From a virus (taxonomy: Duplodnaviria; Caudoviricetes), in the IMG/VR virus record IMGVR_UViG_3300033406_000405, positions 1 to 46,645 of that record: DNA of 46,645 nt, one strand, 5' to 3'. Shown here piece after piece: positions 407 through 44,956 of this stretch. Each line of letters starts with the position of its first letter. Position 1 is the first letter of the stretch. Under the pieces are notes generated by a model that was not told the origin of the DNA, searched no databases, and worked only from the letters and a program-made list of their open reading frames with translations. Made by a program: the position numbers and the translations under genes.

Positions 407-482
407 CTACAAGTAAGTGATCTTACTTGTAGATTGACTTGTAGACGGCTTGTAGATGACTTGTAGATTATAATCTACAAGT
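407..482. repeat. Phased CTTGTAGA array with two palindromes (candidate oriT, parC or iteron site)
   Basis: CTTGTAGA at 426, 438, 449 and 460 (spacing 12/11/11). Inverted repeat CTACAAGTAAG-tgat-CTTACTTGTAG at 407-432. Perfect 24-bp palindrome ACTTGTAGATTA-TAATCTACAAGT at 459-482. Very AT-rich flank at about 340-405. Confidence 0.9.
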
Positions 483-573
483 AAATGCCCTTACACCCAG
501 TAACTGCCTGCCAAAACTGTAATTGAATAATAGAGAGTGAGCGCAAGCCAGTCGCGCATGGAAATTGGACAAG

Positions 574-753
574 TTATTTAGTTGTTAGCCATTGAGCAAT
601 ATAGGTCACCCCCGACATGGCTGCACTCCATTTTAGTATCCGTCCAAAACTATCCGGCACAATAAAAACAAATAGTAGATAAATAACAAGCGTCACAAAT
701 ATTTCAAGGAAAACCGTTCCTCCACCACTTAAAAATTGTTTTATGGTTTCCAT
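574..753 (-). CDS. Small membrane protein (59 aa, hydrophobic hairpin)
   Basis: ATG lies 1 nt after the upstream stop (TAA-T-ATG). Hydrophobic VFLEIFVTLVIYLLFVFIV, then PDSFGRILK and a second apolar segment. Confidence 0.7.
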   Translation of the reverse strand: METIKQFLSGGGTVFLEIFVTLVIYLLFVFIVPDSFGRILKWSAAMSGVTYIAQWLTTK

Positions 754-754
754 A

Positions 755-997
755 TTATTTGCCAATACCAAAAACGGCAAGAATAGCTACCAAAGCGGAC
801 AACACAACAGATGCCAAAGACACTACACTACCAGTCATCCCCACCGCGTCAGCGAGTTCTGCATACCATCCCTTCTTGCTGGCTGTCAGTAACGCTTTTA
901 GCAACGCCACCACCAAACCGGTTATACCTATTCCGATGCACATGAAAGCAGGCGTTCCCGGCTTGATAAACTGCCAAACAAATTCTGAGTAGGACAT
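755..997 (-). CDS. Two-TM membrane protein resembling SpoIIIAC/AD family
   Basis: GGAGGAG RBS at 1006-1012. GLVVALLKALLTASKKGWYAELADAVG...ILAVF aligns without gaps to B. subtilis SpoIIIAC as recalled from memory. Confidence 0.6.
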   Translation of the reverse strand: MSYSEFVWQFIKPGTPAFMCIGIGITGLVVALLKALLTASKKGWYAELADAVGMTGSVVSLASVVLSALVAILAVFGIGK

Positions 998-1584
998 TTT
1001 TTTATCTCCTCCATTGCTTTAATTTGAAATTCAAGTTTGGAATTTACCTTTGGAGGTTTTTCGCTAACCACCAATATTGGTGGAAATCTCTCTGTATATT
1101 TAGTCCACCACTGCCCCACGTATCCGTCGATATTGAACCATTTTTCGTACTTTTCCACCTTATCGAATTTATTAAAACCCCTGTCGTACTCGATAAAAAC
1201 AAACCTATGTTTATTGGTCACAGTATTGTAAATACCCATTAACCCGTCCGGCCGTAATGCCCCATAGTTAACTTCATAATGAAATGAATAGGCCTTTTCC
1301 CAGCTCCGTAAATTAGCTAATAGCCATACTCGCACCCAGTTTACACCAAGCCGGTGTTCAATCTGCCCAGGCTTTTTCTCTGCGTAATAAATATACGGTT
1401 CTCCTATGCTGTCTCGTGATTTTTTAACTTTCTTCAATTCTGCCAGCCGTTGCATTCGCTTTTGTGCCATTTTCATCGACGGAAAAAACATCTGAGCTAA
1501 TTGGTATATGTCTAATACTCCCCATTCAGCCAGAACCTCTTGTATAAGCCTATCGCGGTAGTAGCCTTTTTGGCGATTGTTCAT
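928..1584 (-). CDS. Replication-relaxation (Replic_Relax / MOB_C-type) protein
   Basis: N-terminal wHTH (RDRLIQEVLAEWGVLDIYQLAQMFF...AQKRMQRL), IEHRLGVNWV, RPDG...FIEYDRG...KVEKY nuclease-like motifs, FPPILVV. Confidence 0.85.
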   Translation of the reverse strand: MNNRQKGYYRDRLIQEVLAEWGVLDIYQLAQMFFPSMKMAQKRMQRLAELKKVKKSRDSIGEPYIYYAEKKPGQIEHRLGVNWVRVWLLANLRSWEKAYSFHYEVNYGALRPDGLMGIYNTVTNKHRFVFIEYDRGFNKFDKVEKYEKWFNIDGYVGQWWTKYTERFPPILVVSEKPPKVNSKLEFQIKAMEEIKKCPTQNLFGSLSSRERLLSCASE

Positions 1585-2650
1585 TTTTCCATATCAACCC
1601 CTGCTTGCCGGAAAGTAAAGCCCTGGCATCCGATACCGGCAGATACGGCACTTGAACCTCTAACTGTCGTTCCCACTGATAAATTGCCCTGCCCTTAACC
1701 TCTGCTAACATAGCCGCAGCATCATTGTCTAAGAGCATTCGGGAGTTTACCGCGTCGCGCATACGGAATACCAGACTAGCATTTATTAGTGCGCGTGATG
1801 AAGTCCACCCTGGCCACATATCGCTTGAAGGCCGTTGCGTGCTAAGTATTGCCGCGAATCCTGCCGCCCGGCCCAGCCTTAATGCCCGGTTAATTAGCGT
1901 TTGGCAGACTTCGTCTTGCATTTCTGCTAGTTCGTCGATCACCAATAGCATAAAGGGCATGTGGCCTACATACTCCTGGATTTTTACACATCCGGCTTTT
2001 TCGAGAACATCAAGCCGCTTATCAATTTCCTTATTTATAGCTGTTAGCACATCTCTCGCCTGTGGAATGTCGGTTACAACCAAAGCATGCTTCTTCAAGT
2101 ATGTAAACTCCAGGCGCTTCATATCGACGATTACGGCATAGATTTCACGGGTCAGTAATAGATTGCAGACCAATACATGAATTGAGTTTGATTTACCCCA
2201 CCCCGGCATTCCCGCCACCATCAAAAACGGGCTGTCTGCCAAATCACGGATTACTGGGCCTGTGGCCGATTGACCGAAATAAGCTGGCAAATAGGCCCCT
2301 TTTAAATCCGTCATTTCAAATTTCAATACCGTGGGAATCGGCTCGCTGAGTACCGTTAACACAACGGCTTTCCCCCTTTTTTCAATTTCTACGCAGCCTG
2401 AAACGACATCCCCAAAGTAGTGCTTTTTGCTCTCCAAATCCCGGTAAGACACCCCGGGCGGCAGATGGAATACAAAATGGTGTTGGCTCTTATTCTTGTT
2501 GTGTGCTATCACGATAGGATGCGGCTCCTTTGGCCACAATGCTTCTAATGTATCCAAAACACCTGCCTGTATTTCATTTCCCTTTCTGTGCCGCCATGCC
2601 CGCTGAACTGCACTAACGACCGGGGTTAATATGCTGTCATCTTTTTTCAT
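1550..2650 (-). CDS. FtsK/SpoIIIE-family ATPase without TM segments or gamma domain
   Basis: Walker A GMPGWGKS, IVDMK, Walker B LLVIDELAE, LGRAAG, STQRPS, KGRAIY. Confidence 0.92.
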   Translation of the reverse strand: MKKDDSILTPVVSAVQRAWRHRKGNEIQAGVLDTLEALWPKEPHPIVIAHNKNKSQHHFVFHLPPGVSYRDLESKKHYFGDVVSGCVEIEKRGKAVVLTVLSEPIPTVLKFEMTDLKGAYLPAYFGQSATGPVIRDLADSPFLMVAGMPGWGKSNSIHVLVCNLLLTREIYAVIVDMKRLEFTYLKKHALVVTDIPQARDVLTAINKEIDKRLDVLEKAGCVKIQEYVGHMPFMLLVIDELAEMQDEVCQTLINRALRLGRAAGFAAILSTQRPSSDMWPGWTSSRALINASLVFRMRDAVNSRMLLDNDAAAMLAEVKGRAIYQWERQLEVQVPYLPVSDARALLSGKQGLIWKNEQSPKRLLPR

Positions 2651-2659
2651 AAAAACCCC

Positions 2660-2875
2660 TCACATAAATTGGCTAAAATCCACGTTGTTACTGCTCACCG
2701 CAACCGCGCCTAATCTCGCGTCAATGAGCTTATTAATCAGGGCTTCAATATTGCCCGTGTCTAGTTCTGTTGCAAGTTTCTGCTTAACCCAACGAGAGAA
2801 ATTAGGCAATCCCTGACTGTATCGAAATAACTCTGCATCATCATCCGTAAAATACACTAGCCTTGTTTTTGCCAC
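2660..2875 (-). CDS. Small ribbon-helix-helix-like DNA-binding protein (ParR-like adaptor candidate)
   Basis: KTRLVYFT strand, then helices with NFSRWVKQKL. Overlaps the 3' end of the ParM gene. Confidence 0.65.
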   Translation of the reverse strand: MAKTRLVYFTDDDAELFRYSQGLPNFSRWVKQKLATELDTGNIEALINKLIDARLGAVAVSSNNVDFSQFM

Positions 2876-3663
2876 ATTCTCGCCCCCAGTGTGTGATAAC
2901 CAATTGCGTTTGCATATATCGGATTGCTTACTTGCCTTACTTTATAGTGCTTGCTTAAATAAGGTTCCAACGCCCCTGCACCACCTCCGGTAAGTAAGAC
3001 CGTCTCCCCGGAATATTTCACCCATAACTTACTGAGATCCGTGATAATTCGTCTACTAAACTGCTCTGCCTTATCATCCGCCTGTAATTCCATACAGCCA
3101 TAATCTAACGTACCGGACTGTAAGTCGCGGTACTTTTTGTTTTCGTCAATTGTTACTGTGTTGATCGTACGGCTGCCCGCGTCGATCACCCTGCATTTAC
3201 CGGGAGGAGACTCCGCAATGTAAGCCCCTGCCCCCTCAATAGTGATAATGATATCGGCTTCTGCAAGCCGGATATGTTTTTTCACTCCGTTGATTTCAAT
3301 GTCATAAATCCCGGCAAGTAACCGCCGCAACTCAGCTTTCGTTTCCGGCGTATGCTGGTCAACAGGCAGGCCCGTTACGAGTTGCACACGTTCCGTTTCA
3401 GCAAGCAGCGCAATGGCTGTCAGGGTAAGGATTTTGGTTTCTTCGTGGATTTTACTCTTAGTGGTCATATCCCGAGCGTATCGACTCTCATGCTGGGCAA
3501 GCTCTCCGACGAAATACCGTTGGCCGTTGATGCTGACCTCGTAATTACCTCCCTCTGTTATTTTTCGCTCTCGCCATTCGCCGACTACCGACGGATATGT
3601 CAGGCGGCGGCCATTAAATATGGCCTTAACGGCGTGGCGGCCACAATCTACAGATATAGCCAT
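2857..3663 (-). CDS. ParM/StbA-family actin-like ATPase
   Basis: Phosphate-1 ISVDCGRHAVK, LVTGLP, EGAGAY, phosphate-2 VIDAGSRTIN, LLTGGGA, YANAIG. GGGAGG RBS. Confidence 0.9.
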   Translation of the reverse strand: MAISVDCGRHAVKAIFNGRRLTYPSVVGEWRERKITEGGNYEVSINGQRYFVGELAQHESRYARDMTTKSKIHEETKILTLTAIALLAETERVQLVTGLPVDQHTPETKAELRRLLAGIYDIEINGVKKHIRLAEADIIITIEGAGAYIAESPPGKCRVIDAGSRTINTVTIDENKKYRDLQSGTLDYGCMELQADDKAEQFSRRIITDLSKLWVKYSGETVLLTGGGAGALEPYLSKHYKVRQVSNPIYANAIGYHTLGARMWQKQG

Positions 3664-3691
3664 CTATATACCTCCCAATATAGTTACTGCT

Positions 3692-3720
3692 GCAGTATGT
3701 TGTTTGCTATATAGATATGC
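3692..3720 (-). promoter_or_regulatory. Putative sporulation sigma (sigmaE-like) promoter of the ParM operon
   Basis: GCATATC-N14-CATACTGC upstream of the parM RBS resembles the sigmaE pattern (K)CATAtt-N14-CATAcaaT. No good sigmaA promoter is seen on this strand. Confidence 0.35.
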
Positions 3721-3779
3721 TGGATGTGTATAATTTGATGCCTGTATTGGTTAAAATAGAAATAAAAAAATCCCCCCCT

Positions 3780-3977
3780 TTAATCTGGAGGATCAATTAA
3801 TTCTTCAATATGACATTGAAGTTTTCGCGAAATGTTCCATGCCCATTCTAAAGAAGGTTGAATTTCTTGTCTCTCCCACCTAGAATACTGATTTTTATTA
3901 ACCCCCAAAAACATTGCAAACTCTGTCTGGTTCATCTCCCTCTTGTGTCGCCAAGACTTTAAATTATTTTTCAGCAT
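3780..3977 (-). CDS. XRE-family helix-turn-helix regulator (65 aa)
   Basis: NNLKSWRHKREMNQTEFAMFLGVNKNQYSRWERQEIQPSLEWAWNISRKL. Confidence 0.9.
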   Translation of the reverse strand: MLKNNLKSWRHKREMNQTEFAMFLGVNKNQYSRWERQEIQPSLEWAWNISRKLQCHIEELIDPPD

Positions 3978-4064: not shown

Positions 4065-4553
4065 ATGGTAACCCGATATAAGCTTTTAGTATTTTCTCTA
4101 TTATTTGCAATATTGTTTTCTCAGTATGGATATTGTTCTGGTAGATACTATCAACTGTATTCTAATTCTTATGGGACATTTTCTTTAGATACTTTTACTT
4201 TAGAAGTTAATAGTAATACTACTGGCATCTATTTTAATGCATGGATCATGATACAATACACCGAAGAAGGAAGATATCAGGTAATTGCGGATCGGCTAAA
4301 GTTAGGCCTTCCGGTTTTTGGGTATCAAAATCTTAAATCTTCTCTATGGAACTACACATTTGCAACAAACGGAACACGAAATTTTTTTAAAAATATGCAG
4401 TGTATAGAATATGATACTTACGATAATATTCTATGGAATTATACGTATCCATCTTCTAAACCGTTTCAAGAAGCAATTCCAGGTTCAACAGTAGAATCTG
4501 ATATATACGGAATATCACTTTATTGCTCATCAAATGGAATTCAACCCAAATAA
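4065..4553 (+). CDS. Secreted protein, paralog 1 (surface-adhesin-E-like)
   Basis: AAGGAG RBS, N-terminal signal peptide, C-terminal FQEAIPGSTVE motif. Low GC. Confidence 0.65.
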   Translation: MVTRYKLLVFSLLFAILFSQYGYCSGRYYQLYSNSYGTFSLDTFTLEVNSNTTGIYFNAWIMIQYTEEGRYQVIADRLKLGLPVFGYQNLKSSLWNYTFATNGTRNFFKNMQCIEYDTYDNILWNYTYPSSKPFQEAIPGSTVESDIYGISLYCSSNGIQPK

Positions 4554-4601
4554 ATGGTCAGTCATACGATGTTGTAAATATATTTAATGGAGGGGTTAAC
4601 T

Positions 4602-5096
4602 GTGAAAAGGCTTATTACGTTCTTGCGATTATTTGTTTTTACAATCTTATTAGGAGCACTATTTACACAACAAGGTTATTGCTCTAGCAGATATTATCAT
4701 TTAGAATCTAATGAATATGGAATTTTCTCTTTGGATACGATAACTTTTCACGTTACTAAGGATAATAATTGGATTTACTTTGATATTTGGATTAAAGATG
4801 AATATACTGAAAAAGGGATAGAAGATTATAAAAAAAGCAGACAATCGAAAGGACTTCCTACAAAAGGTTACGAAAAAACAAGTTATTCTTTGACTCACGA
4901 AATATTTGCTACAAATCCATCGCGTAAAATTTTGGCACATGTGGGTTATGCTGTTTATGACAAATATGGTACTAGTATAGAAAATACCACATTGTCCTCA
5001 CTTAAGTATGAAGAAGTTATTCCGGGTTCAGTAGGAGAAGCTCTCTGTAATGAGGTAATAAATTATTGCATAGCAAATAACATATCTCCACAGTAA
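4602..5096 (+). CDS. Secreted protein, paralog 2 (surface-adhesin-E-like)
   Basis: GTG at 4602 after GGAGGGG. Signal peptide. GYCSSRYYHLESNEYGIFSLDT and YEEVIPGSVGE match paralog 1. Confidence 0.65.
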   Translation: MKRLITFLRLFVFTILLGALFTQQGYCSSRYYHLESNEYGIFSLDTITFHVTKDNNWIYFDIWIKDEYTEKGIEDYKKSRQSKGLPTKGYEKTSYSLTHEIFATNPSRKILAHVGYAVYDKYGTSIENTTLSSLKYEEVIPGSVGEALCNEVINYCIANNISPQ

Positions 5097-5178: not shown

Positions 5179-5409
5179 TTACTTCTCCACAAACCACTTA
5201 CCTTCATCGTCAAAAAAATAAACCTGCTTACCCATGATCTTACAGGTGTAGCGTATACCCAGGCCGCCGCCTTTAAGTGAGGCGGCTTTTCTTACATCAG
5301 TAAGTCGGTCTATCTCGAACACGCGTCCATCCTTCCACTTTAAACTTAAGGGGCGAACTGAGCCGTCGACATTATGTCGAGCCGTAACTTCCACGAATAC
5401 TTTTCCCAT
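5179..5409 (-). CDS. Small beta-rich protein associated with DinB cassettes
   Basis: GSVRPLSLKWKDGRVFEIDR...KGGGLGIRYTCKI...KWFVE. ATG at 5409 after AGGTG, directly after dinB. Confidence 0.75.
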   Translation of the reverse strand: MGKVFVEVTARHNVDGSVRPLSLKWKDGRVFEIDRLTDVRKAASLKGGGLGIRYTCKIMGKQVYFFDDEGKWFVEK

Positions 5410-5414
5410 ACTTA

Positions 5415-6650
5415 TCACCTAAAAAAGGATACTGGATGAATTACATTATCGTCTTTCGGACTGAATCCACTTAACTGCGAATCTTTCATCATAATGCACC
5501 GTTGTATACAATATGATCCAAAACGTTCACGGAGCTTATCAATGGTTCGTTCAATAGGTTCCTTATCTACTTTGTTCCAGAATAGATCAAGTTGAATATT
5601 CCCTTCTGCCGTTACTAAATCGGCACCCCGAACACCCAGGCTGCGGATCGGTTTATCCCATGTATAATTAGTCTCAAATAGCTCTAACGCTTTTGCTGCT
5701 ATATCATCCGAAATAAATGTTGGCACCGGAATTTTCCCCGGCCTCTCAAACGATGATAATTCGTTATTCCGCACACTTATTGATACAGTGGTGCATTTCA
5801 GCCCGTGTTTTCGAAGTCGCGCTGCCACACTTTCAGCCAACACATAAATAATAATTTTCACATCTGCTATATTCACTAAATCTCTGGCAGTAGTTGTGCT
5901 GTTGCCAACAGACTTTACAATACTCTCCTCACCAACCAGGCGCACCGGTGCTGAATCAAGGCCATTAGCGAACTGCCACAAGGTTTCTCCCCAAACACCT
6001 AGAAGCAGCTTTAAATCCCGTACATTACGGTTTGCCAAATCACCTATAGTAAATATCGCCCGATTCTCTAACTTCCTTTTAGTTGCACGACCAACATACA
6101 ATAAATCACCTACCGGCAACGGCCATACAGTTTGCCGGTAGTTTTCCTCCGTAATAACTGTAGTCGCATCCGGTTTCTTCATGTCGCTACCGAGTTTAGC
6201 AAATATTTTATTCCAGGAAACACCTACCGACGCAGTGACCCCCACTTCCTCCCGCATACGTTTACGAATAGTATCGGCGATAGCGGGACCATCACCTGCA
6301 GTCAGCTTTGAACAAGAAACATCGCACCAAACCTCGTCAATTCCAAATGCCTCGATTTGGTCAGTGTAATCAGCATATATCTCCCTGGCCATTCTGGAAA
6401 ACCGCAGATACTTTTTGAAGTCCGGCGGTACAACAATCAGCCCCGGGCATTTTTGTTTGGCCTGCCATATGACATCGCCGGTTTTAACCCCCATTTGCTT
6501 AGCATGGTAGTTCTTCGCCAAGACAATTCCGTGACGCGCATCTACATCACCGCCAACAGCTACCGGGAAATCGCGAATCTCTGGTCGATAAAGGCACTCC
6601 ACGCTTGCATAAAAATTGTTTAAGTCTACGTGCAGGATTGTACGATTCAT
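5415..6650 (-). CDS. dinB: Y-family DNA polymerase (Pol IV/DinB-like)
   Basis: ILHVDLNNFYASVE, FGIDEVWCD, SVGVSWNKIFAKLGSDMKKPD, clamp-binding QLDLF. Confidence 0.93.
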   Translation of the reverse strand: MNRTILHVDLNNFYASVECLYRPEIRDFPVAVGGDVDARHGIVLAKNYHAKQMGVKTGDVIWQAKQKCPGLIVVPPDFKKYLRFSRMAREIYADYTDQIEAFGIDEVWCDVSCSKLTAGDGPAIADTIRKRMREEVGVTASVGVSWNKIFAKLGSDMKKPDATTVITEENYRQTVWPLPVGDLLYVGRATKRKLENRAIFTIGDLANRNVRDLKLLLGVWGETLWQFANGLDSAPVRLVGEESIVKSVGNSTTTARDLVNIADVKIIIYVLAESVAARLRKHGLKCTTVSISVRNNELSSFERPGKIPVPTFISDDIAAKALELFETNYTWDKPIRSLGVRGADLVTAEGNIQLDLFWNKVDKEPIERTIDKLRERFGSYCIQRCIMMKDSQLSGFSPKDDNVIHPVSFFR

Positions 6651-7517: not shown

Positions 7518-9212
7518 TTATACCTTAAACTTTCTTACAACATTCTGCATTTCCTCTGCCATTTTAGCCAATGCCTGACTTGAAGAAGCGATTTCTTCTA
7601 TAGAGGCAGACTGTTCTTCAGAGGCGGCTGATACTGTCTGTGTCTGACTTGCCGTATTCTTACTAACTGAAACAATCCGTTGCACGGATGATACAATTTG
7701 TTGACTACCGCCAGCCATTTGCTGAACATTGGCCGAAATGTCAGCTACCTGAGAGGAAACCGTATTAATAAGTTCTACTATCTCTCCAAATTTCTTTCCG
7801 GCACTATTTACTACTTCCGTTCCTGTTTTTACATCCTGCGCACCAGTATTCATGGCCACAACTGCTTTTTCCGTATCAGATCTAATCTCACCGATAAGTA
7901 TGGCTATTTTTTGAGTCGATTCCTGTGACTGTTCGGCTAATTTTCGCACTTCTTCGGCTACCACGGCAAAACCTCGTCCCTGCTCTCCTGCCCTGGCTGC
8001 TTCGATGGCCGCGTTAAGGGCCAACAAATTAGTTTGTCCGGCAATACTGGAAATAACTTCAACAATTTGACCGATTTCCTGCGAACGTTCATTTAGTTTG
8101 CTAACTGCATCAGCAGCTTCCAACGTAGATTGTTCAATTGACGCCATTTGATTAACGGCCTGCCCAACAATCTCACTGCCAGATTTAGCCGATTTAAAAG
8201 TTGTATCTGTTACTCCTGCCACAGTATTAGCATTGGCTGCGGCTTGCTGCATTCCCGCTGACATTTCCTGAACCACAGTTGCCGCTTCATCAGCAGCACT
8301 CATTTGAGCATCAGCCCCCCGGGCCACTTCTGTTATAGATCCCGCCACCTGATTAGTGGCTTGAGCAGACTGTTCCGTGCTGGCCGAAAGCTGTTCCGCA
8401 GAAGCTGCCAATGTTTCCGATGAAGTAACAATCTTCTTAAGAACATTGCTAATGCTAGTAATCATTTTTGCCATGGCTCTCGCTAGCTCGCCAGTTTCGT
8501 CTTTGGCACGAAGGAATTTTTCCTCAACCTTAAAACTAAAATCACCGTCCGCCAGTTTATTTAAATCCATAATAACAAGTTTAAGAGGCCCGGTAACAGA
8601 TCTCGTTATCATTATAGCGGTAGCTATTCCTAGTATTATCGCTACCATAGTCAATACCAGTAGGGTGATTTGAGCCTTATGCCCCATTGTCTGAGCATCA
8701 TCAAACCCATCATTCATTTGCTTTTCCCTAAACACAAGATATTCATCAATTTTATTTCGAATATCAGAGGCGGCTGGTGCCATTTCACTCCCCATAACAC
8801 TGACTACTTCGTCCATTTTACCAGCATTTTTTAGAGGAACAGTTTTTTCCATTGCTATCTTATCATATTTTTCATTTAAAGCTTTAATATCCCGAGCAAA
8901 CTGTTTTCCTTTCTCCGTAAGAGCTCTATCATTTAGTTCCTGTAAAATTGTGTCATCTTCTTTATAAAGCTTTTTATAGTCATCAATAAACGATTCCTTA
9001 CCTGTAATGCAAAATCCCCGAATAGCCGCCACTTTTAAAGCACTATGCTGTGCTAAAATATAAGTTTTTTGATACAGGACCAGGTTAATCTCCTGCAAAT
9101 TATCACTCGTTGTATTCATATTCCCAATTAAAAATACCCCAATGCCACAAGATATCGCCGTAATCGCCAGAACAATAATAAAGCCCATCAATATTTTTGC
9201 ACCGATCTTCAT
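7518..9212 (-). CDS. Methyl-accepting chemotaxis protein (2 TM, four-helix sensor, HAMP, signalling domain)
   Basis: [58 protein letters not shown] at 9212 after GGGGAGG. Confidence 0.95.
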
Positions 9213-9256
9213 TATGCATCCTCCCCTGCCGTATAATAGCACCTCTCTCATCTCAC

Positions 9257-19903: not shown

Positions 19904-22900
19904 TTATTTCTTAGATTCATCGTATGAATTAATATATTCATACTCTCCTCTCTGGCCTTTAGATACATTTTGCAGGCTCCGTTCTAAACCGGTTTTACTC
20001 TTCTTTTGGATTTCCGTACTGACCCGTTTACCGGAAATACGGCGTTCCGCTAACTTGTTCCTATTTTCATCGGATGGATTATTAATATAGTTGTCGATAG
20101 CCTTAGCATCTTGGGCTTGTTTTTCTTTTTCCTCCGTGCTAATGATGTTGCGTAGATCAGAGGATACCGCTTCATCTGCCAGCCTAAAGCCCAATCCTTT
20201 TACTAAACGTTCATACATAGTATCGTATACGTTATTCGTCCGGCCGCGTGCGGTTTTGGATTCTCCGGCAACCGCCTGCGCTATATTGCCAACGCCGGGC
20301 GAAACGGCTTTTAAGGTTTCATTGATATTACCCCGCCCTACTTCTCTTATCACTGAAAGTAATGTGCTGACGGCTGGTCCAAATGCGTCCTTTAGTTCCG
20401 TTGGCATTATATCCCCTAGACCGGTTCGATTAGAAATATCTACGCTGCCGGTATAATCCGTTGAGAGAATCCCGTAGTTTATGGCTTTAATAAGGGTTTG
20501 TCTATCTTTGTCTTCACCGGCCCATGTAAACATTGCTTTTTTCATTTTTTCTTCAAGGTCAACGCCAAGGATTCCACTCAATAATTCTAACAACGTATTA
20601 GCAAACGGCGGTCCCGCAAACAACCCGGAAAGGAGTAGCAGCGGTATCCATAACCGGAGGTTTTGTCCAAGGGTGCCTTCATGGAGTAAATCGCCAATGA
20701 GTTCCACTTCTTTGATACCGAACTTCTTAAATTGTAGTAATAGTTGAGCTACTGGGCCGCCCCGTCTAAATAGGTTAGGGGCATCCGCCACGCTATAATC
20801 GAAATTGGCTTGAGTATTAATGGACTTCGCATACTGTAAGGCTTCTTCTTTACTTTTTCCTTGGCTAATGGCTTTATGGTACGCTCCCAAGATAGCCGTC
20901 CGGCGCATCAACATGTCTAAGTAATGAAAAAGAATCGTTGAGTTTTTAAATAGCTTGCCCACGTTTCCGGCGCGAGAATAGCTGCCACTTTCCATGGTCA
21001 AATTGGTATCAATTCCGGCTTTCCGTAAAATGATACGGTCTGCTAAATCAGGCCGTATGGCCCTTGCCAACCCTTTTGAAGCCACCCCATAATCATTAAG
21101 GGCGGCACCCACATTGATAAACTGAGCTACTTGAAGTAAGGCCGAAGAAACGTTCAACATCCCCAGTTTCAACACAGCTATTGTGTTAGTCAGCCCGGAG
21201 ACAAGTTGCAAAGCCGGTCGATCACCAAAATAAGCACCAAGGTATTTTTTGAACACAGGGTTTAGGTTCAAAGCATCGTTTAATACTTTTTCTATGTTGG
21301 TAGGCACACCGTTCACATCATTGATATAGTCTTTCACATAGGAAGCTACTCCTTCATGGCTGGCGTTATCCCAACGGCCAAACAGCCGTTCAAAGGTGCT
21401 AATCGACTTGGATTTAAACGGGTCCATAGCCACATACCGGCTTACCATGTTGAAGTGGTGAGATAGTACCCAATCCAGGTTTTGCTCGTACCCTGCTGCC
21501 CCTTTCCTTTGCAGGAAGTTCCCCATAAAGCGGTGACGGCCTTTCATACCTACTTTGCCGTCCATAAACTGCTTGGCATCAGAAAGGCTAATTTGAAGGT
21601 CTTCGGCAATTTTCTTCTGCATCTTGAAATACTGATAATCCCCGACAACTGCCGCCTGCATCTGTTCACCCTCAAAGCGGAATTGCTTGGGTTGTATTAC
21701 AATTTCCATATCCGGGTTTTCTTTAGCTATCTTATTGGCCTTTTGCGTAGCTTCCTGCATAGTAGTACCGGAATCCAGCATGGTATAGGTAGATTTCCCG
21801 GTTTCCTCATCGATTTCTTTTTGCATGATAAACCAGTCATGGAAGAAATGCGGAATGTAGCCTTTTAATTTGTTGATCGGAGGTGTTTGGCTCCTGTAAT
21901 GAACCTCGTAGAAGCCATCGCCGCGGGTTAAGCCGCTGCTTTCCGGCATGGCATATTCCGTAACCCCATAGGGAGTTGCACTAAGTACCTCAACATTCGG
22001 ATTTTGCCGCATTTCATCCAGGTCTTTTTCCGTCATAACGGCAGTGTCTTCCCGAATTTTCGGCGTTTTGTACGTGACTAAGGTGTAACCACCAACCGCT
22101 GGCGTTTCTTTCAGGATGGTAACAAATTTATTGCTTTTCAGCGCTTCCAATTGATGAGCGTCCAAGTTTTCGGATTTTATTTCTATTCCTTGCCGGATCT
22201 CATTCGTCAAATTATAGGCCTTATCCATGGCCACCCGTACCATACGGTATGCCTTTATAACATTATCCGAATACCCGGCTTGGCGTAAATCCTCATTGGT
22301 GTAATCCTTGCCGTCAATATCTCCTTGTAAAAGAATTTGATACAGAGTGGCCTTGCCGTTTTTGTCCAGCAGTTTTTCCCATTTTTCTTTACGGTGGCGA
22401 AATTCATTTCGTAAGGTTTCCTGCTTTTCCATGGCCATGGTAGCCAAACGGAAAAACGGTTTAATTTTCGGATGCTTCTGAGCGATTTCATTCACCGAAT
22501 TAAGGGCATTAGAAAAGAAACCAATCTTATTCGTGGTTGGTTTCTTTCGAATAGTAACATTTTTACTTGGCTTAATGCCAAAACGCTGCGCTAAGTTTTG
22601 TACAGCATTTTGATTGACTTTATTAATGTCCGAGCTATCAACGGATTCCTTAGTGTTATTCTCTTCACTATTACCTTCTTCCCTATTTTCGGTGGCAGCT
22701 TCTTTAGCAAACATGACATTACCGCACTCATTGGCAGCCATATCCTTAACCTGTTTCCAAACATCCACCATCTTGCTTTTTACCTTGCTCCAAGCCTCGC
22801 CCAACAACTCTCGCATCTTCTTTACCCAATCTCCGGACTTGGTATAACCATCGACTACTAACCGTTTACCGAGTTCCACTAGCCCCGGTAAGGCATCTTG

Positions 22901-25900
22901 TAATCTATTGGCCGCTTTTCTGATTTCTTCCGCCAGATCAACATTATCAAATTCCCCGAAAGTAGGGTCGAAGCCAACATTTAGTTTTGCTCGATTATTT
23001 GTGCTTCCATTACTATTCTCTACAGGTTCTTCTTTAATCGCCGGTTCAAAAACATGCGGTTCGTAAATGGGTACGCCGCTTTCATCGGTAGCCTGTGTAT
23101 AAGGAATAGAGCCTTTATCAGTTATAACATAATAATTATCTTGGCCCCATTTATGACCTTCAACAGTGGTAGGTTTTCCGTCCACATAGATTTCCGTACC
23201 TACCGGAGCGCCTTGCCGTAGCCAGCTTGGAGCCGGAACCGGATTATTTTGCAAATCCTTCTCCAAATCGTCCAGCATCTTACGTTTCTTTACTAAGGTA
23301 TCGGCCTGAGCAAACGGTTGCTTTTGTACTTCCTTTAATCTTTCTATACTGGCCTTGGCTTCGTCAATGCCGCTACCTAGTGCTTCCGCTCTCTTATTCA
23401 GTCCACGCAATTTCCCTTCGACGGAAGCCATGGAAGGTTCAATAGAATATTCCCCATTCCCACTGAGAAGAAAATTGGTATTGAGCCAACCCTTTTGCAT
23501 GAGAATAGTAAAACCATGGACTTTTCCTAATTCCACGCCGTCATTTGTCGCTGCAGTCCGCTTTATAGCATCCTCTAATGCTGCATCCGTATCTTTTCGA
23601 TTATCATACCGCTTGCCATCAATCACTGCACTAAAAGGTTTTTCTTTGGAGGCTATATACTGTTTATAATCAAAATCCAATTCTTTTATTAAGGTGGTAT
23701 TGCGCTTAATCTTTTCCTGGAGTTCGCGTACTTTTCCGGCAGCATCGGCAATGCCATAGGTATGCATCCGTTCCCGCTTTTCCAGTTTTGCAATGTCGGT
23801 TTTGAGTTTCTCCCGCATTTGGGTCCGGGGATCACCAGTGGCTTCGGACAAAGAAGCGGTAATATCATTCACTTCATCGCCATCATCCATGCTTACCGCG
23901 TCCCCTTCTACTACGCGGGTATTTTCGTCTGCCTTTAGAAATTTCTTTATGAAATTATCTTTTACCGCCAATACCTGCCAGCGGCGGCCATCGAGCTTTT
24001 CTGTAATGTATCGATATTCGAGTACCGTATTCCACTTATTCCCCTGCCGCCAGCCACGGCCATTTCGCTGTTCCAGTTCTCCGGGCATCCAAGGAGCATC
24101 TAAATGGTGCATCGCCCGAAGGTTAGTTTGCATATTTACCCCAACGCCCAATGTTGCGGTATTACCGATTACCACCCGGATTTTGCTCTCATTCATGGCA
24201 TCGGCTATTTCTTTACGCTTTTCTTTACTTACCGAACCATCAACAACCGCAATTTGTTCTCTGGGAATACCGGCCTCCACCATTTTATTCACCATGTCTT
24301 TAACCATGTTGAATACCGGGATTTTAGTCTTTGTTACGGTTCCATCCTTAGCGGTTTTAGACCGTACTGACTCATCATTATAACCCCGTTCCATGAAGAT
24401 TACCTGCGTAGCTTGTGGGTGTTCCTTATAATGAGTTATGACATTTCGAATACAACAGTTTTCTTTTAAGTCCGAGTTATCCGGCAAATGCCGGTTAACT
24501 AAGCGCGGGTCCATACCGGCGTTCGCGGCTGCTGTCTCTACTAAAACAGGAGAAGCCGGATCACCCGACTTCATAATTTCAAACCGTTCTTTTTTCGATG
24601 CATTTTTGAATTTCTTCGCCAGTTTGACCAGTTCACCCAGTATTCCCTTCTGCGCTTCGGTCATCGGCCCTATATCATTAATGATTTTCTTATAGGGGCG
24701 GCCAACAGGGTTTTCGGTTCTCCCATTTACTAACGCTTCCCGATCTGCTTCGGTTAAATCCTTAGAGGAAAGCGTTTTGCCGTCCGGAGTTTCCCTGGGA
24801 CGAAATTCCGGCATTTGGTCTGCAAAAACAATGTCCATGTACTGGCCAACTACCCGGCGTAGTTCCGGCACATTTACAAAGGCAGCCAGCCGGGTGATGG
24901 GTTCATATTCTCCGGTGGCGGTAAGTTCCACATCATTCACGGAATCCGCAAAGGTGGAAAACCACGTATCCCAATCTTTAATACCATCGCGCTCCATCTG
25001 ATCATCCATAACATAGCGCATCTGATGATAGATTTCCGTTAAGGTGTTGGTAATCGGTGTCCCGGTAAACGTATGAACTCCGCGCCCATTGTTCATTTTC
25101 TTAACGTAATCCGTTAAAAGGCGCAGCGCCACAGACCGGTCAGATGTACCTTTGTTTAAGCCACGCATAGTCATTTTCGTAGTGATCGGAGGCTTTTTAA
25201 ACTCATGAGCCTCATCGACCAAAACCAGGTCTATTCCCAGTTCTTCAAAGGGTATAGCCCCTTCTTTAGACGCACGCATGGCCATTTCATCAATTTTTTT
25301 AATAATCCGGTTCCGTTCCTTAACCAACTCTTTTGCCGTAACGCTTCGTACCTTACTCATGGCCTCAGGATCATCCATATCCTTAATATCTAAATTCGCA
25401 TTATCCTCTGCCGCTGCGTCCAGGGCTTCTTGTTCCAGTTGAGCAATTTCCTCGGCGGACAGTTCGTCCAACGTTTCGCGGGTTAATGCAAACTTATTGA
25501 TTAGAGAATGCGGCACAACAATAGCGTCCCAATCGTCATTGGCTATTCGCCGGGCAGCTACATCAAAATCCTTCGGCTTTTCAATATACAGCACCTTAGC
25601 CCCTGGGTACATTTGATTAATGTCTGCGGCAAGGGAAGCGCTATTTGCATTATGGGCAAAAATAAGGGGCTTTTTCGCAATTCCATACCGGCGCGACTCT
25701 ACGGCAATACCGCCAATGGTATAGGATTTCCCTGTACCAACCTCATGCGCATATATGCCGCGTCCATTGACTAAGCCTCGGTAAATGGCGTTTTGCTGAT
25801 GCTGGCGAAGATTAAACGGGCTATCCCCGCGCTTTAAAGCCATACCGGGGAATTCCATGAAGGAACCGTCAAAATGCGGACTGGCAACGGCATTCATGAC

Positions 25901-28900
25901 TTCGTTATAGTTATTCTCCAACCAGATTCGACGCTCTGCATCCTTCCACGCCCAGGTAGGGAATTCTTCTCGTATTTTCGTGATCTTATCATTGGCCTGC
26001 GTTGTCGCCTCTTCATCAATAACCGTTTTACCATCTTCATCCTTATAGGTGATTTTTACAGTACGGTTATTCATGGCCGCAGTTAGGAGCTTATCAAACT
26101 TATAATCAGAAACACCCCATTGTGTAGTAGCTTCCGGCCTGCTGTTAAGGGCTTTGTTTTCGAATCGTACACCCCAGGAACCACCACCAAAGCGAATCTT
26201 AATATCTGCTATTTCCTCGGGCTTTGTTACCCCCAGCATTTCAGCAATAAACTGCTGATAGTGTTCTGGTTTTACCCATGGAGCACCTAGTTTGGCCTCT
26301 ATTTGAAAATACGGTACTGTTTTAGGAATGACTTTTTGGAGTGCTTCAATGTTACGCTCCATCCCTTTTTGACCACCATCGAAAGCGTCCTGTGCTTCCC
26401 GGAGTTTCCGCCGGACATTCCCGGACAAATATACGTCCGATACTTCATAGTTTCCGGCTGGTGTCCGAAACACCGCCCCGGAACCTTCCAGTTCATGAAT
26501 GACTTCATCTTCGGACACATGGGCTGCTTTTGCGATCTTTACTATATCGATATCCATGCTTTCATTCCGGGCTATGATATACGCATCCCGAATGCTGGGA
26601 TTCGCAACAGTAACTTTGCCCCGAGTGGTTGGTTCCGTCAAAATCTTAGCGGGTTTACCTTCGTATTCCAAAGCGGCAAGAGAACCGTAGGCCGGATCAT
26701 TAACCCGGTTTAACATATTAAGCCCGTAAGAATCTGTTAGATTGCCGAATTGCTTAACGAACGACTTATATTGCTTATTTAATACCTTCCGTAGTTCTTC
26801 CGTATTCGGCGTACTATCCCGTTCCGCATCAATAAGCTGTCCGTAGGCTTTTCGCATTCCGACTAAGGCTTTGATCTGATTTTCACGGTTCAATGTCTCT
26901 TTTTCACTTTTCACCTTATACTTAGCTACTTCGTTTAAGGGAGCCAGATGTTCGCCGCTAACGACATAGAGATTGCCGTCATCATGACCGACAATACTTC
27001 CCTGTCGGTCTTTCGTATTATTGGTGAGATACTTTATTTCTTCTTTCGGCGTAAAAGGTACAAATCCGTCTTGAGGAACCCGGTCTGCAAGAGAGTTTAG
27101 TAATTCTAACAAGTTTGCCGGCCGATTTACAATCATACCCGGTCTTCCTGTTGTGGTTCCATGCCCAAAGTCAAGTTCTCCTAACACATGGTCTGGATGC
27201 GCTACATAGTATTCGTTGACTTGAAAGTCTTGTCCTGATGGAGATTTTACGTCGGCAAGATTGATCCATCCCTCATTAGAGGCTGATGTAGTAAGGGGTT
27301 CCTGCCGTTTTCGCAGGATAATGAGGTCAGTTACTACCTTCGTTCCCGCGTACTTTTCAAAGGCACCGGTAGGTAAGCGGAATGCGGCAACAAGCTCCCC
27401 TTTCTTCGCCATAGCTAGGCGAGTAGACTTCCCAATCTTGTCCATGGTTCCGGCACTAGTAATACCCATGATAATGCCGCCGGGACGCGTTTGATCTAAG
27501 GCTTTTAAAAAGAAATAGTCATGCAAAGAGGGACTCAGTTTGGCGTAACGCCTATCAACTGGTCCCTCTGCTGCAAACGGCCAATTACCAATAACTAAAT
27601 CATAAAAGTTATCTGCCGTTTTACTATCCTGATATCCTTTTATCTGTACATTGGCCTCTGGATATAAAATTTTTGTCATCCCGCCGGTGGTTTGGTCGAG
27701 TTCAATTCCGGTAAGCTCACTCTTTTCCATTAAGTCACGGGGCATAAGTCCAAAAAAGTTTCCAATCGCCACGGAAGGTTCTAATACCCGCCCTCCGGTA
27801 AAGCCCATGGCTCGCATGATGTTCCACATCGTCTGAACTGTTGGTGGATCGGTATAATGGGCATTGATAATAGATCGCTGGGCGCTCTCCCAGGCTTCTT
27901 TCCCCAGATGTTCACGGAGCCAAGCATCTTCTTTTTCCCACAAGGCTTTAGGTCTTGGCCGGTCCCATGAACCATTAAACAGTTCTTGCCCAAAAGAACC
28001 CCATCCGGTATAAGCCGCCATTGTGCTCAATTCTTCCGGGGTAGGTTCCCGCCCTTCTTCCGTGATGGATTGAAATGCCTCGATGGCACCTTTATTTTTT
28101 CCAAAGCGTAACTTTGGAGAACCACCAATCATATTCTCAGGATCCGCGATGAAATGATTTTGTCTTTGATTGTTTGGGACTAGGCCCGTTGCCTCGCTGC
28201 GTTCAGCATCTCGAATACTTCCTTCATTCCGCGTCCCATGCTGTTCGCTTCCAGTTCCTCCTCGACTCCCTCCTCCGGTTCCCTTAGCAGCCAGTCCCTC
28301 GCTGCTTCTGCTTTCGCGTCCGGTATTGGGAGTCCCGCCTTCATATATTTCGTCTGAGCTTCGTAATACATGTTCATCAGAACGTGAGCCATCCTTTCCA
28401 GGATTTTCAGTTTCTTCAGGCGTGCGTACATCTGGGGTCGATACGCTTCCCAATACTCGATCAGTTCCTTTTCGGCCCAGCTCCCGACTCCCCATTCCTT
28501 CTCGATTTCCCGACTCTTGCGTATGGTCCACTTCACTAGGTCTTTGTCCTCCATCGATAGCGGCGCTGCCATGGCTTTCTGCCCCCTTCTTAAATCCTGG
28601 CCATTCCGTTACACCGGCATGTACCGCTTCCGTTAAACCGGTGTATTGTTTACCTAAGTCCTGCTCAATTTTATTTTTCATTGCATCCAGGCTGGTTATA
28701 CCGTCCTGATACAGTATTCCGGCGTATTCAAACAAGGTATTGGCTACTTCATCATTATATTGTACGTCTTTCGGCCATTTATTTATGGCTTCCCATACAC
28801 TGGGCAAGAAAGGTTCTATTTTTTCCCCAACCGTATCCACCATCTGGTTTGACCATGCGCTAAACTCATTAACGCCCCGTTGTAAATGGATTGCACCGAC

Positions 28901-31900
28901 TTTAAAGGCGGCTGCCATAAGTTTTACATTAAAGACCGGATTCGCTGACAATTTATTAAGTTCGGCCTGCAGTTCTTTCATGGCTGTGGCCAATGCTTCA
29001 TCACTATCATCAATGAAGTGGAAAGCTTTTGGCTGTGCAGGCTTCTTCTGCATCTGTTTTGTTTGCGGTTTTTGCCCAGACAACTCTTTTAGCCTATTCT
29101 GTAAATACTCTCGGTTTTCTTGGCTACCATCAAAGCCGCCTGCTCCAACGACATTTTCTGCTTGCCTACGTTCGTCCATGTCAAAATCATTCTGAGATTT
29201 TGCAGCCGATATTTCTTCTTTTTGTAGTGCCTCCATGTCGTTCTCTTTTTGAGTACCGCTTTTCAATTCTTCAAGGTAGTGCTGCCCCTTTTCCGTAAGC
29301 ATCATTTTACCGCCGGGAGCAGATACCAATTTACTTGCAACTAAATCTTGTAATTCATCTACGTTATATCGATCCACAAACTGCCGGGGAGTAAGTTTAT
29401 TCACCGCAATATCTGAAAGCATAGTTTTATCTTGTTCACTGTTATCGTAAATGGGTTGGGGTGAAGTCGCTGTTTTTTCAGTAGGTTGAGAAGTGCGTTC
29501 CTCCGGCTGCTTTTGTTCCACCCCTGCAATTTCGTTGGCCGTTTTCACTGTTTTATCGGATTTCTTGGCATACCATACTTTCTTTGCGCGATTCCACCGG
29601 AAACCGTTCGTTTTTAACCGCTCACGGATTTCTTCACTTGGCTTACCGTCAAACTTAAGTTCTATACCATTTTTCTCAGTGTTTTCAATGATTTGAACAC
29701 CAGAAGATTTCTTTGCGTTAGCTATAGTAGCAGTTTCATTAACGGGTGATGTTGGCAATTGTTTCGGCTGTTCCGTTATATTAGTTTCCGTAGAAGGTTT
29801 TCCACCGCCAAAAATTGCATTAGCAATTGTCTTTACTTGGTCTAATAACGGTTGAGGGTTTATGCCATATACCGTATTCGGCCATTTTTTTGCTGTTTCA
29901 ATGGCTAACTCTGGATCACCGACAAAAACCTCTGAAAGCTTCCCTTGCAAATATAAAGCATGTGACAACACACCATATGTTCTTCGAATAATGTCCTTTC
30001 TATCGGAGTCATTGACAACGTTTCCCCAGGTTTGAGCCGAATTGAAATACTTCTGAGCTTCTTTTACCGCATCCTCTACTGCGCTTCGAGACGCGGGGCC
30101 AGTATCAGGGATACGATTCATTACGGTAGAGAAGTTATTATTATCAATCGATTTGCCGATAGAATCCCGTTCATCATATAACTTATTTAATTTTGCTAAT
30201 TCTTCAGCCGTTAATTTCGTAGAAGTACTCTCTGATGTATCGTCGATGGGTGCGTTAAATACTTCAGCCTGACCGTATTTTTTGATTAGTTCATCTTCAT
30301 AGTCATCTATTTTTTTCTGTGCAGAATCATATTCCTCTTCCGTTACAGGATTTGCTGTATTCGCAGAATCTTGGTCCTGAATATTAGTCCGTGCTGTGTC
30401 CTTAGCCATATGGTTTTTCAACATTTCTTCATAAGGTATTACTAGATGTGCATATTGCATTGCCCCCATTTGGTCAAGGAATTGAACTAACTCTGAACTT
30501 ACAGCTTCTAATCCACTTCTATCACGATAATACGCATCTAACACTATCTGAGCTGTTTCACCATCGTCTGTAATCCGTCCATCAATCTTTTTATCTCTTC
30601 TTGCTTGTTTTAGGTAATTTACTAATGCTTGATAACGGCCTTGCATTCTTGTACGTAAATCAGTGACATATTTGCTTACTTGGTGATCGCCTAACAATAA
30701 ATCAATCATGTGCCTTATTTCATGTGAAAATGTTCCACTTGGTGCATTTTCACCTCTGCTTATTCTAGCACCATAATGACCACCTACAAGCGTACCAACA
30801 CCAACATCATCACGGGCTTTACCACGATTATTTCTCATATCTTCATCAGAAATTATTTCACCGCGCAAAACGCCCTTCAACTGTGGATTAAGTCTATTCA
30901 ACTCACTTACTCGCCATAAATCATATTCTTTTCTGGACATTTGCCATGGTTCTTTTGTGGTATTTACTAGTTCCTGATTACCTTCACTTAGTGTTGAGCG
31001 GTTTCCTGATCCTGTTCCTTTCAGCACTGCGCTCGTCGCGCCAACTTCTTCATTATTTCCACCATTCGTGGCCTGACCGTTAGATAACCCCTCTGTTCCG
31101 GTTCCCAACCCGTTTTCTTCGAATAGGTTTTGTCCTCTGACACCTTCGGTCAACTCCTTTGCCGATTCTAAGGTTTCGCTTATCGTAGGTTGTTTTGCCG
31201 CAAATAACGTATTCTGTTTTGGGTTTCCCGCTTCATTTACACTATCAACGTATGTATTCAATAATTCAATTATCCGTCGCGGGCGTTGCTTATTATCATC
31301 AAACAATTTTAACAAGGCTTTGGCTTCCGGCGACAACCCTTCCCCAAATAGCCCTTGTTCTTGTAAGTATACGCTGACGGATTTTCCTTCATCCCGCAAA
31401 GCGGACAATTGTTTAACCGCTTCTGTAATATTCGGAGTAATATCCAGCGGAAACAGTTCGCCGCGTTCAATTTTCTCCTTCATTTGGGCCATTCGCGGGG
31501 CTACTGCCAACAAAGCATTGGATATTTTTTTTACATTATTATCCAACGTTTCAGCCAATCTTGCAAGTAAATAATTATCCCCGTAAGCCTTGGCAAACAG
31601 TGCATTTTTCAGGCGTTGAATTCCCTGCTGACTAATCTTTCCGTCACTATCCATTAGGGCATTCATTTCATTTGGCGTAGCAATATCACCCAAAGCAGAT
31701 TGCACAAAGCCCCGGTTAGCGGCGGTCATTAGGTCTCCAGCTTCATTGGCAGAAAACAAGGATAATGTATTAGCCGAAAGGCGATTCGCATCAACAGTAG
31801 CCTGTTCGGATGCACCCATCACTGCCCCGCCTTCTGTAGAGGTAATGATTTTTTCTAGTGGGACATCGGCCATACGCTGCCGGACTAATACCGGATTCTG

Positions 31901-34501: not shown

Positions 34502-34513
34502 TAAGTCCACCTC

Positions 34514-37622: not shown

Positions 37623-38273
37623 ATGCATTTTACAGGGAGAATAATTGGTATAACGCTTATAGCGCTACTTGCTTTGGGAATTAGGATATATGCTTACATC
37701 TATTTTGACTTTCCACTTAGTGCGCCACCCATCGTAGGAGTTATTTGTTGTTTTATTGCTTGGTGGATGGGCAATCAGTATGATAAAGCTAAATTTTATT
37801 CAGAAAAAGACAGTTTGACGGGACTTTATAATCGGCGATTTATTGATAAGCTTTTTCCGACCCTTTTAGCTCAAATGGACAGAAGAAAAGCGAAATTAAG
37901 CATAAGCATATTAGATTGTGATAACTTTAAAGTCATTAATGATATGTATGGACATAAAAAAGGGGATTTGGTACTCCAAGAATTCTCAAGTTTACTTTTG
38001 TCTAAAACTCGAAAAAGTGATATAGTTGTTCGATGGGGCGGAGATGAATTTTTAATTGTTGCCCCTTTTGCCGATGAGAAACACACGGAAGTAATTATTG
38101 GTCGATATACACATGCGTTACAAGAACTATCCTCAAAATTACAGTTAGAAATTTCCTGTTCAAGTGGATATGCGATATATCCTACAGATGCGAAAGATAT
38201 GGAAAGCCTAATACAAATTGCAGATAGGAAGATGTATAACCATAAGATAGGATCAAGGGGAAAACTAACTTAA
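37623..38273 (+). CDS. Membrane-anchored diguanylate cyclase (moron)
   Basis: Two TM segments, DSLTGLYNRR, DCDNFKVINDMYGHKKGD, I-site RKSD, intact GGDEF, ADRKMY. Confidence 0.95.
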   Translation: MHFTGRIIGITLIALLALGIRIYAYIYFDFPLSAPPIVGVICCFIAWWMGNQYDKAKFYSEKDSLTGLYNRRFIDKLFPTLLAQMDRRKAKLSISILDCDNFKVINDMYGHKKGDLVLQEFSSLLLSKTRKSDIVVRWGGDEFLIVAPFADEKHTEVIIGRYTHALQELSSKLQLEISCSSGYAIYPTDAKDMESLIQIADRKMYNHKIGSRGKLT

Positions 38274-44946: not shown

Positions 44947-44956
44947 CTCTAATCTG

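Follow-up and report, generated by a model that had tools for sequence, protein, structure and literature searches.

A phage operon pairing an FtsK-like motor and a relaxase-type nuclease with a putative SpoIIIAC relative: a candidate mother-cell system for moving DNA into the forespore

What does a phage gain from an actin, an FtsK-like DNA motor, a relaxase-like nuclease and two small membrane proteins made as one unit? The question is raised by IMG/VR virus record IMGVR_UViG_3300033406_000405 (Duplodnaviria; Caudoviricetes), whose 46,645 bases are the whole stretch of DNA considered here and are called the window below. The record holds tail fibre genes, lysis genes and a gene of the ejection type encoding 4,868 amino acids, and six minus-strand genes near its start were originally predicted to form a system that moves the phage DNA into the forespore. 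The operon represents a new variant, clostridial in type, of a cassette already known as an orphan, and new evidence for a mother-cell role is presented here. Some function timed to sporulation is likely, and the chances appear evenly balanced that the operon would be a mother-cell DNA pump that transfers extrachromosomal element copies to the forespore. Its features are the following.

2857-3663, minus strand: short ParM/AlfA-type actin, 268 amino acids (ALP_N, PF17989, E 3e-28)
2660-2875, minus strand: probable DNA-binding adaptor or repressor of 71 amino acids from a conserved family, ParR-like or ribbon-helix-helix-like by pattern only
1550-2650, minus strand: FtsK/TcpA-like motor, 366 amino acids (FtsK_SpoIIIE, PF01580, E 6e-13)
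928-1584, minus strand: Replic_Relax (MOB_C-like) protein, 218 amino acids, N-terminal winged helix followed by a PD-(D/E)xK nuclease (PF13814, E 8e-12)
755-997, minus strand: hairpin 1, two-helix membrane protein of 80 amino acids, putative distant relative of SpoIIIAC (host SpoIIIAC profile)
574-753, minus strand: hairpin 2, membrane protein of 59 amino acids without known family, conserved in locus L001
3742-3736 (-35) and 3719-3710 (-10), minus strand: sigmaE-type promoter motif with a 16-nucleotide spacer (matrix from host spoIIIA promoters)
407-482, no strand assigned: six CTACAAG repeats in an array, four of them in direct orientation at a distance of 11-12 nucleotides and set between inverted copies, a candidate binding or loading site

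The tight coupling of the six genes is borne out by the coordinates of the open reading frames, the junctions from the actin to hairpin 2 consisting of an overlap of 19, a gap of 9, overlaps of 35 and 70 and a gap of 1 nucleotide. The window is part of a prophage, and its main open reading frames were scanned for protein families. The actin and Replic_Relax identities were confirmed by Pfam, in which the three small genes of the operon (the 71-amino-acid protein and both hairpins) have no match. The actin displays intact ATPase motifs and is nearest to clostridial ParM and AlfA (PDB matches to pCBH ParM, E 8e-12, and to AlfA, E 1e-5). The predicted structure of the motor, with a predicted local distance difference test score (pLDDT) of 90, consists of the alpha-beta motor only and ends directly after it; neither an N-terminal membrane anchor nor a C-terminal gamma domain is matched in Pfam, in agreement with the original prediction. 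A segment flagged by a crude hydropathy rule was read as a buried helix and strand following Walker A and not as a membrane helix. Walker A K153, Walker B D239-E240 and the QRPS motif are invariant in 55 sequences, the best folds are TcpA of pCW3 (E 4e-25) and then the FtsK motor (E 1e-21), and proteins of GBSV1 and phage Gamma are matched directly. The model of the nuclease (pLDDT 93) displays a helix-helix-helix-wing arrangement in residues 3-67 followed by a restriction-type domain, and D113 and E132 are invariant in 81 sequences; no fold match reaches E<=0.001, restriction nucleases leading with weak E-values (FokI, E 0.004) and helix-turn-helix regulators being included at E ~0.2. Hairpin 2 has no match in Pfam, PHROGs or the Atlas families. 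A predicted complex of FtsK and hairpin 1 obtained a score of 0.00, which gives no answer and was used neither way.

In order to establish what is constant in the cassette, 219 loci were collected and 99 cassette loci were collapsed at 85% FtsK identity into 56 lineages, a clade FtsK being defined by a score of at least 200 bits (window included) and the nuclease being counted when it lies at most 750 nucleotides downstream. Of the 104 loci with a clade FtsK, 97 carry the nuclease behind it, and six of the seven exceptions end within 430 nucleotides of FtsK; among more distant FtsK genes the nuclease lies downstream in 2 of 112 loci. A small two-helix membrane gene adjoins the cassette in 45 of the 56 lineages, the actin is present in 6, and the 71-amino-acid family in 7, namely all six actin lineages and one without actin. 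According to these linkage counts, the core unit would be composed of motor, nuclease and hairpin, with the actin pair as an add-on; the ParM and ParR-like components of the original prediction are present, but accessory. The same gene order is found in Bacillus and Geobacillus isolates and on plasmids, and the cassette occurs in lytic phages, plasmids and prophages. In SP-15 and LIS04 the hairpin and FtsK genes are present and no annotated nuclease lies in their vicinity. FtsK matches were also obtained in 51 mycobacteriophage records (LittleE, the one inspected, has no annotated nuclease beside FtsK), and Ralstonia matches in 5 phages and 135 plasmids. An integrase or recombinase family is found close to the cassette in 17 lineages, and an M23 peptidase with intact motifs lies downstream in 11 of 56, often fused to a cassette-type hairpin, as would be expected if the septal wall must be crossed. 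SpoIIQ is an M23-family protein too. In cassettes of the Desulfosporosinus type (L083:7975-8556, L011:7909-8625, L202:1865-2569) the second membrane gene is such a hairpin-M23 fusion with intact motifs, and several of these fused hairpins score 8-12 bits with the SpoIIIAC profile described below.

The 71-amino-acid protein had been called a ribbon-helix-helix protein, for which no family or structure match was found: Pfam and the PDB gave no meaningful match, and only phrog_8400 (function unknown) was hit, so that the assignment stands as a pattern only. Where the actin is present, its gene always comes after that of the actin. A look-alike follows the cassette of phage Blastoid (L249:5700-5903) with no actin annotated nearby, and L127 likewise; the protein may act as a repressor and not as a ParR.

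The relationship of the hairpins to SpoIIIAC was assessed with a profile built from 38 host sequences, which was compared to 386 small open reading frames with at least two hydrophobic segments originating from all fetched loci. Cassette genes account for 99 of these frames, 92 of them assigned by a position rule and 7 relabelled by hand after inspection of the list. All but one of the top 20 places and all but one of the top 30 (19 and 29) fall to them, and hairpin 1 ranks 6th of 386 with 15.2 bits, the best non-cassette frame reaching 9.5. When the profile was reversed, 13 of the top 20 were cassette genes and hairpin 1 fell to 1.8 bits; 100 block shuffles preserving the hydrophobic layout placed at most 16 cassette genes in the top 20 and gave hairpin 1 at most 8.1 bits, none of the 100 equalling the true profile. 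The decoy frames include non-genes, which eases enrichment, and the shuffled profiles face the same decoys. Hairpin 1 thereby qualifies as a distant SpoIIIAC relative, its order-specific scores standing above the composition controls. It also belongs to the hairpin family of the cassette (19.1 bits with its own rows left out), and its top three Atlas matches are SpoIIIAC/AD clusters (0.85, 182 features), a value below 0.9 that constitutes a lead only. Pfam SpoIIIAC matches 5 of 53 proteins weakly, and 5 of 13 after preselection by the SpoIIIAC profile. A full member of the family is present on the Thermoanaerobacterium plasmid pMU3262 (PF06686, E 4e-13, 49.8 bits, in agreement with its RefSeq name), where its gene is located one gene plus 100 nucleotides ahead of FtsK and nuclease.

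Host spoIIIA is controlled by sigmaE, and the promoter claimed for the operon was examined with a matrix derived from it. The DNA ahead of spoIIIAA was taken from 37 genomes, starts were found in 36, and a two-block matrix was built from 35 sites; its seeds and the 14-16 spacer range were chosen after the window site was known, and training was performed without phage DNA. The site located 47 nucleotides upstream of the actin start is the best on both strands of the window (14.8 bits, the next scoring 14.2), and a sigmaE-type promoter is present as a motif. Its -10 is identical to that of host sites of the L335 type (CATATCTATA, L339) and is conserved in L001; its 16-nucleotide spacer occurs in no training site and is 1 nucleotide longer than any. 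The shuffled intergenic stretch reaches the same score in 6 of 2000 trials. Upstream of cassettes, sites of at least 14 bits are found on the sense strand in 8 of 55 loci versus 2 of 55 on the antisense strand and 13 of 468 controls (rank test p 3e-5). A sigma70 scan returned 8 sites versus 11 expected. Two other interpretations were discarded: CTATATAG was first taken as an operator of the adaptor, which was ruled out as host spoIIIA -10 boxes have the same letters, and a sigmaG site at the second CATA (3694 region) would have a spacing of 16, below the expected 17-18. The accessible text of two papers indicates that sigmaE and sigmaK have a common -10 and different -35 elements (PMC3789822) and that spoIIIA is among the promoters footprinted with SpoIIID (PMC517825).

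A GGACA-plus-CATA pattern is found in 26 of 57 loci versus 8.3 in shuffles; it was defined on the same loci, is absent from the window and is a lead only. The GGACA box stands 10-11 or 21-23 nucleotides ahead of CATA upstream of cassettes, for example in L002, L107, L112, L117, L127 and L247, and GGACA[AG] precedes 21 of 36 host spoIIIA starts (L312-L345). We take this box to resemble a SpoIIID site. On pMU3262 (L347:2060-2180), the strongest sigmaE-type site ahead of the SpoIIIAC gene (17.7 bits) points in the opposite direction, to a restriction endonuclease gene.

The third line of evidence is host range, for which 50,697 phage records were searched with Bacillus-type nuclease queries; the window's own nuclease gave no match among isolated phages. 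The two queries matched 26 and 105 phage records, of which 23 and 103 belong to Bacillaceae. The remaining labels are Staphylococcus (SpaA1, MVC_VPHSA1) and Stenotrophomonas (TS-12), and the nuclease gene of SpaA1 is identical to that of Bacillus phage BceA1. Among 36 phage records matching the actin, 34 are named for spore-forming genera and 2 are without host. Plasmids yielded 348 of 72,556 records, the listed genera being all Bacillaceae or Paenibacillaceae with 2 records unlisted. The nuclease homologues of isolated phages and plasmids are almost confined to spore-forming genera, a pattern that partly reflects descent given the short reach of BLAST. The cassette, whose pair of FtsK and Replic_Relax was originally noted from phages of spore formers, is not limited to phages. 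The cassette spans Bacilli and clostridial lineages, and spoIIIAC is present in nine of ten named genomes that carry it, the tenth being an 'Archaeoglobus' bin suspected to be misbinned.

The favoured mechanism can be summarized as follows. The operon would be switched on by sigmaE in the mother cell after septation. The hairpin would enter the engulfing membrane, next to or within the SpoIIIA-SpoIIQ complex of the host, replacing the missing anchor, and the anchor-less motor would dock at it. The winged helix of the nuclease would bind the repeat array and mark the element DNA, in place of the missing gamma domain, and the nuclease cut would provide the motor with an end or relax the circle. 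The motor would then pump element DNA across, the actin, if present, bringing DNA to the pole. The beneficiaries would be copies stranded in the mother cell, such as a phage that has just infected a sporulating cell, a prophage after excision or a plasmid. A conjugation-like transfer within a single sporangium, which would give the spore channel its first DNA cargo, can be proposed only tentatively and is less probable than not. As the benefit would be limited to DNA outside the forespore, it fits lytic phages, plasmids, freshly infecting temperate phages and the missing laboratory phenotype described below. The entry of phage and plasmid DNA into spores is an old open question, and the cassette recurs without assigned function in more than 100 phage records of Bacillus relatives and in plasmid records numbering several hundred. 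Its SpoIIIAC-like subunit and its mother-cell promoter point to a specific task that can be tested, and its carriers include cultured phages of B. subtilis. Should the mechanism be true, mobile elements would possess an active route to spore-borne persistence, and the spore channel could be co-opted for DNA.

A number of results weigh against this mechanism. Both window hairpins fall below the cut-off of Pfam SpoIIIAC/AD (PF06686), set at 24 bits, where cassette relatives reach 10-19. The two membrane proteins had been predicted to be SpoIIIA-like, which the SpoIIIAC profile suggests for hairpin 1 but not for hairpin 2 (-1.0 bits). The hairpins of Bacillus phages reach at most 7.1 bits with that profile, and that of Blastoid leans to a pilin of type IV secretion systems (E 0.012). 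Profile-profile comparison of the hairpin with SpoIIIAC gave a probability of 10% only, and E 0.095 with SpoIIIAD. When 10 host genomes were searched with the hairpin family profile, spoIIIAC was missed, the one weak match (E 0.035) being a long open reading frame after spoIIIAD of G001. Regarding the promoter, 32 of 55 loci score below 10 bits, and the four Bacillus-type isolates scanned have no good upstream site (3.1-5.6 bits). Confinement to spore formers, near-complete in the phage and plasmid records, receives no help from a phylum sample: the Pfam nuclease is present in 27 of 401 genomes and a clade FtsK lies beside it in 5, all with spoIIIAE, but 326 of the 401 have spoIIIAE anyway, so that this genome-level test has low power and is uninformative; the Pfam search also missed known cassettes in G005 and G010. 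DNA is not known to be a cargo of the SpoIIIA-SpoIIQ complex. The FtsK of phage Fah is described in a review as a 'delayed' gene made in lytic growth (PMC4113786). Finally, an integrated prophage needs no rescue, its DNA entering the spore as part of the chromosome. The proposed sporulation link is backed by three independent sequence lines (SpoIIIAC kinship, promoter motif and host range). The rescue would apply only to extrachromosomal copies, and the element of the window appears integrated.

Three other explanations were considered. Sporulation-timed interference, in which the SpoIIIAC-like hairpin acts as a poison or modulator of the host channel or the ATPase and nuclease destroy mother-cell DNA without any DNA being delivered, would serve to postpone dormancy, to eliminate sporangia lacking the element or to block other phages. 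It accounts for all three sequence lines (SpoIIIAC kinship, promoter and host range) equally well; ATPase and nuclease pairs occur in defence, the window FtsK matches the MADS and SspH ATPase models, and a Spo0E-family gene lies directly downstream on pMU3262. The window nuclease, however, matches no defence model, its family is a relaxase family in the accessible portions of two sources (PMC3357382; PMC12857230), and the closest fold of the motor is a coupling protein. The recurrent recruitment of actin (6 lineages) and the repeat arrays fit DNA movement, and interference is considered unlikely. Cell-to-cell transfer or mobilisation in trans, the DNA being handed to the pore of another element or to a minimal TraB-like pore including the hairpins, appears rather improbable. 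The TcpA fold, a top NCBIfam match to plasmid TraB (E 1e-15), the pilin-like partner in Blastoid, the M23 wall hydrolases and the 348 plasmid records speak for it, and the four direct repeats recall the five, distant from nic, that are bound by pAD1 TraX according to the text available (PMC12857230). It leaves the SpoIIIAC relative, the mother-cell promoter and the near-absence from phages and plasmids of non-sporulating Firmicutes without reason, and the mother cell is about to lyse. Moreover, as originally noted, no VirB4, channel or mating-pore family of conjugative type IV secretion was found among the window proteins scanned, which are the main open reading frames of part of a prophage.

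Ordinary partition or replication support is the least probable of the explanations considered. ParM, adaptor and array would segregate DNA, also at polar division in the manner of AlfA, and FtsK and nuclease would resolve it or initiate replication. The actin is AlfA-like, and AlfA raises plasmid retention through sporulation from 18% to 58% as far as the accessible text indicates (PMC4615649); the RefSeq name of the nuclease is 'replication initiation protein', and the lytic production of the Fah FtsK would also fit. This explanation is opposed by the absence of the actin in 50 of 56 lineages, by an integrase, recombinase or att-like site close by in at least 3 of the 6 actin lineages, and by a deletion in 0305phi8-36 without effect on growth, as reported in the accessible text (PMC3357382). 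Furthermore, sigmaE becomes active once the septum has formed, when plain partition would come too late, and the membrane hairpin would be left unexplained.

Comparison with known systems places the mother-cell pump in context. The 'DNA translocation operon' of Pathria et al. (2012) comprises 0305phi8-36 orf200/201/203/207 and SPO1 gp27.3/27.4/27.9, with relatives in GBSV1 and Gamma/Wbeta/Fah; in the accessible text its deletion is harmless to laboratory growth of 0305phi8-36, its tie to phages is called unexplained and cell-to-cell transfer in biofilms is proposed (PMC3357382). It has in common with the window a MobC-like relaxase, an ATPase without membrane helix, a separate membrane protein and an actin-like gene. 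In contrast to the window, the membrane protein is described there as VirB6-like and not as SpoIIIAC, and the same accessible text mentions neither a promoter nor a spore link (PMC3357382). MOB_C relaxases with their coupling proteins (pAD1 TraX, CloDF13 MobC) similarly combine a winged helix and a restriction-type nuclease with an adjacent FtsK-like ATPase and nearby direct repeats. Unlike these and pCW3 TcpA, the window has an ATPase without anchor, a SpoIIIAC-like partner and a sporulation-type promoter, with no VirB4 or pore genes found. SpoIIIE has the same FtsK alpha-beta motor, and its direction from mother cell to forespore is that proposed here; the window motor differs by its lack of membrane and gamma domains, its pairing with a nuclease and its predicted later (sigmaE) production. 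Genome announcements mention SpoIIIE and the forespore for phage FtsK genes (PMC3853050). [quoted passage not shown] Hairpin 1 is related to SpoIIIAC by sequence and the window promoter matches spoIIIA promoters, whereas the window offers one distant subunit on a mobile element and none of the other seven was seen in the cassette. AlfA/AlfB, ParMRC and phage entrapment aids (parS, 0A boxes, SPO1 ParM) resemble the window by a short actin with a small partner and by spore inheritance of extrachromosomal DNA; they place DNA before or at septation by host or filament forces, whereas the window would rely on an optional actin and a constant membrane-coupled motor. SPO1 ParM gp27.9 is presented as a possible entrapment aid in the accessible text of Magalie et al. 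2026 (PMC12991052). No report linking the cassette to SpoIIIAC or sigmaE was found in a literature search whose coverage excludes most subscription journals.

The state of the element was assessed with L162, an identical copy on a longer contig that extends beyond position 1. Beyond the window start come a gene resembling a repressor, a tRNA-like 3' half, a fragment of a transposase and a transporter of host type. The tRNA-like 3' half, a weak Rfam tRNA match (E 0.21) with none by ARAGORN, is a probable phage attachment (att) site, and the window start appears to be the end of an integrated prophage. ParMRC and AlfAB partition systems are those of extrachromosomal replicons, and the L162 copy of this element runs into host-type genes. 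At L162:8462-9028, the tRNA-like 3' half is followed by an integrase C-terminal remnant (by reading, without Pfam match) and a Mutator-family transposase fragment.

The repeat and palindrome array claimed downstream of the operon was recovered, with 6 CTACAAG copies in 407-481 versus 4 in the remaining 46 kb of the window and two perfect palindromes in the region. No nic site is recognisable at the 70-120 bp from the array (407-482) expected for an origin of transfer of the MOB_C type, and no centromere of the ParMRC or AlfAB kind was identified. An Rfam scan gave no match at gathering level. The array sequence is not kept in L001, where another, degenerate array occupies the corresponding position. 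Periodic arrays are weakly enriched in the family (6 of 50 versus 4 of 108), and an exact-repeat test across it was flat. Phased arrays of 11-15 nucleotides with differing sequences, several with an inverted end copy, were observed in L085, L105, L107, L194, L246:2705-3180 and L245:2790-3085. These differing arrays look as if each nuclease had its own site.

Upstream of the operon, as in many cassette loci, a small helix-turn-helix gene is present.

3773-3977, minus strand: XRE-type helix-turn-helix gene, 65 amino acids (PF01381), with a terminator-like hairpin at 3792-3773 that would insulate the operon

Two tandem paralogues with signal-like N-termini and no family (4065-5096) follow, oriented away from the cassette. 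A TGTCGAA (0A box) at 263-269 lies upstream of a Cro-like gene, the window total of 2 versus 4.8 expected being not above chance. The 4,868-amino-acid protein (19904-34510) combines transglycosylase, ddrB-ParB and helicase domains and is a DarB-like ejection protein. A chemoreceptor, a GGDEF protein, a DUF1847 protein and a transposase fragment (7518-9251, 37623-38273, 43280-43885 and 44657-45085) stand among the phage genes as cargo or decay. A Y-family polymerase with a partner of 79 amino acids is located at 5179-6650; the partner family is found near the cassette in 8 loci, and on plasmid p334 YolD and a Y-family polymerase adjoin the cassette.

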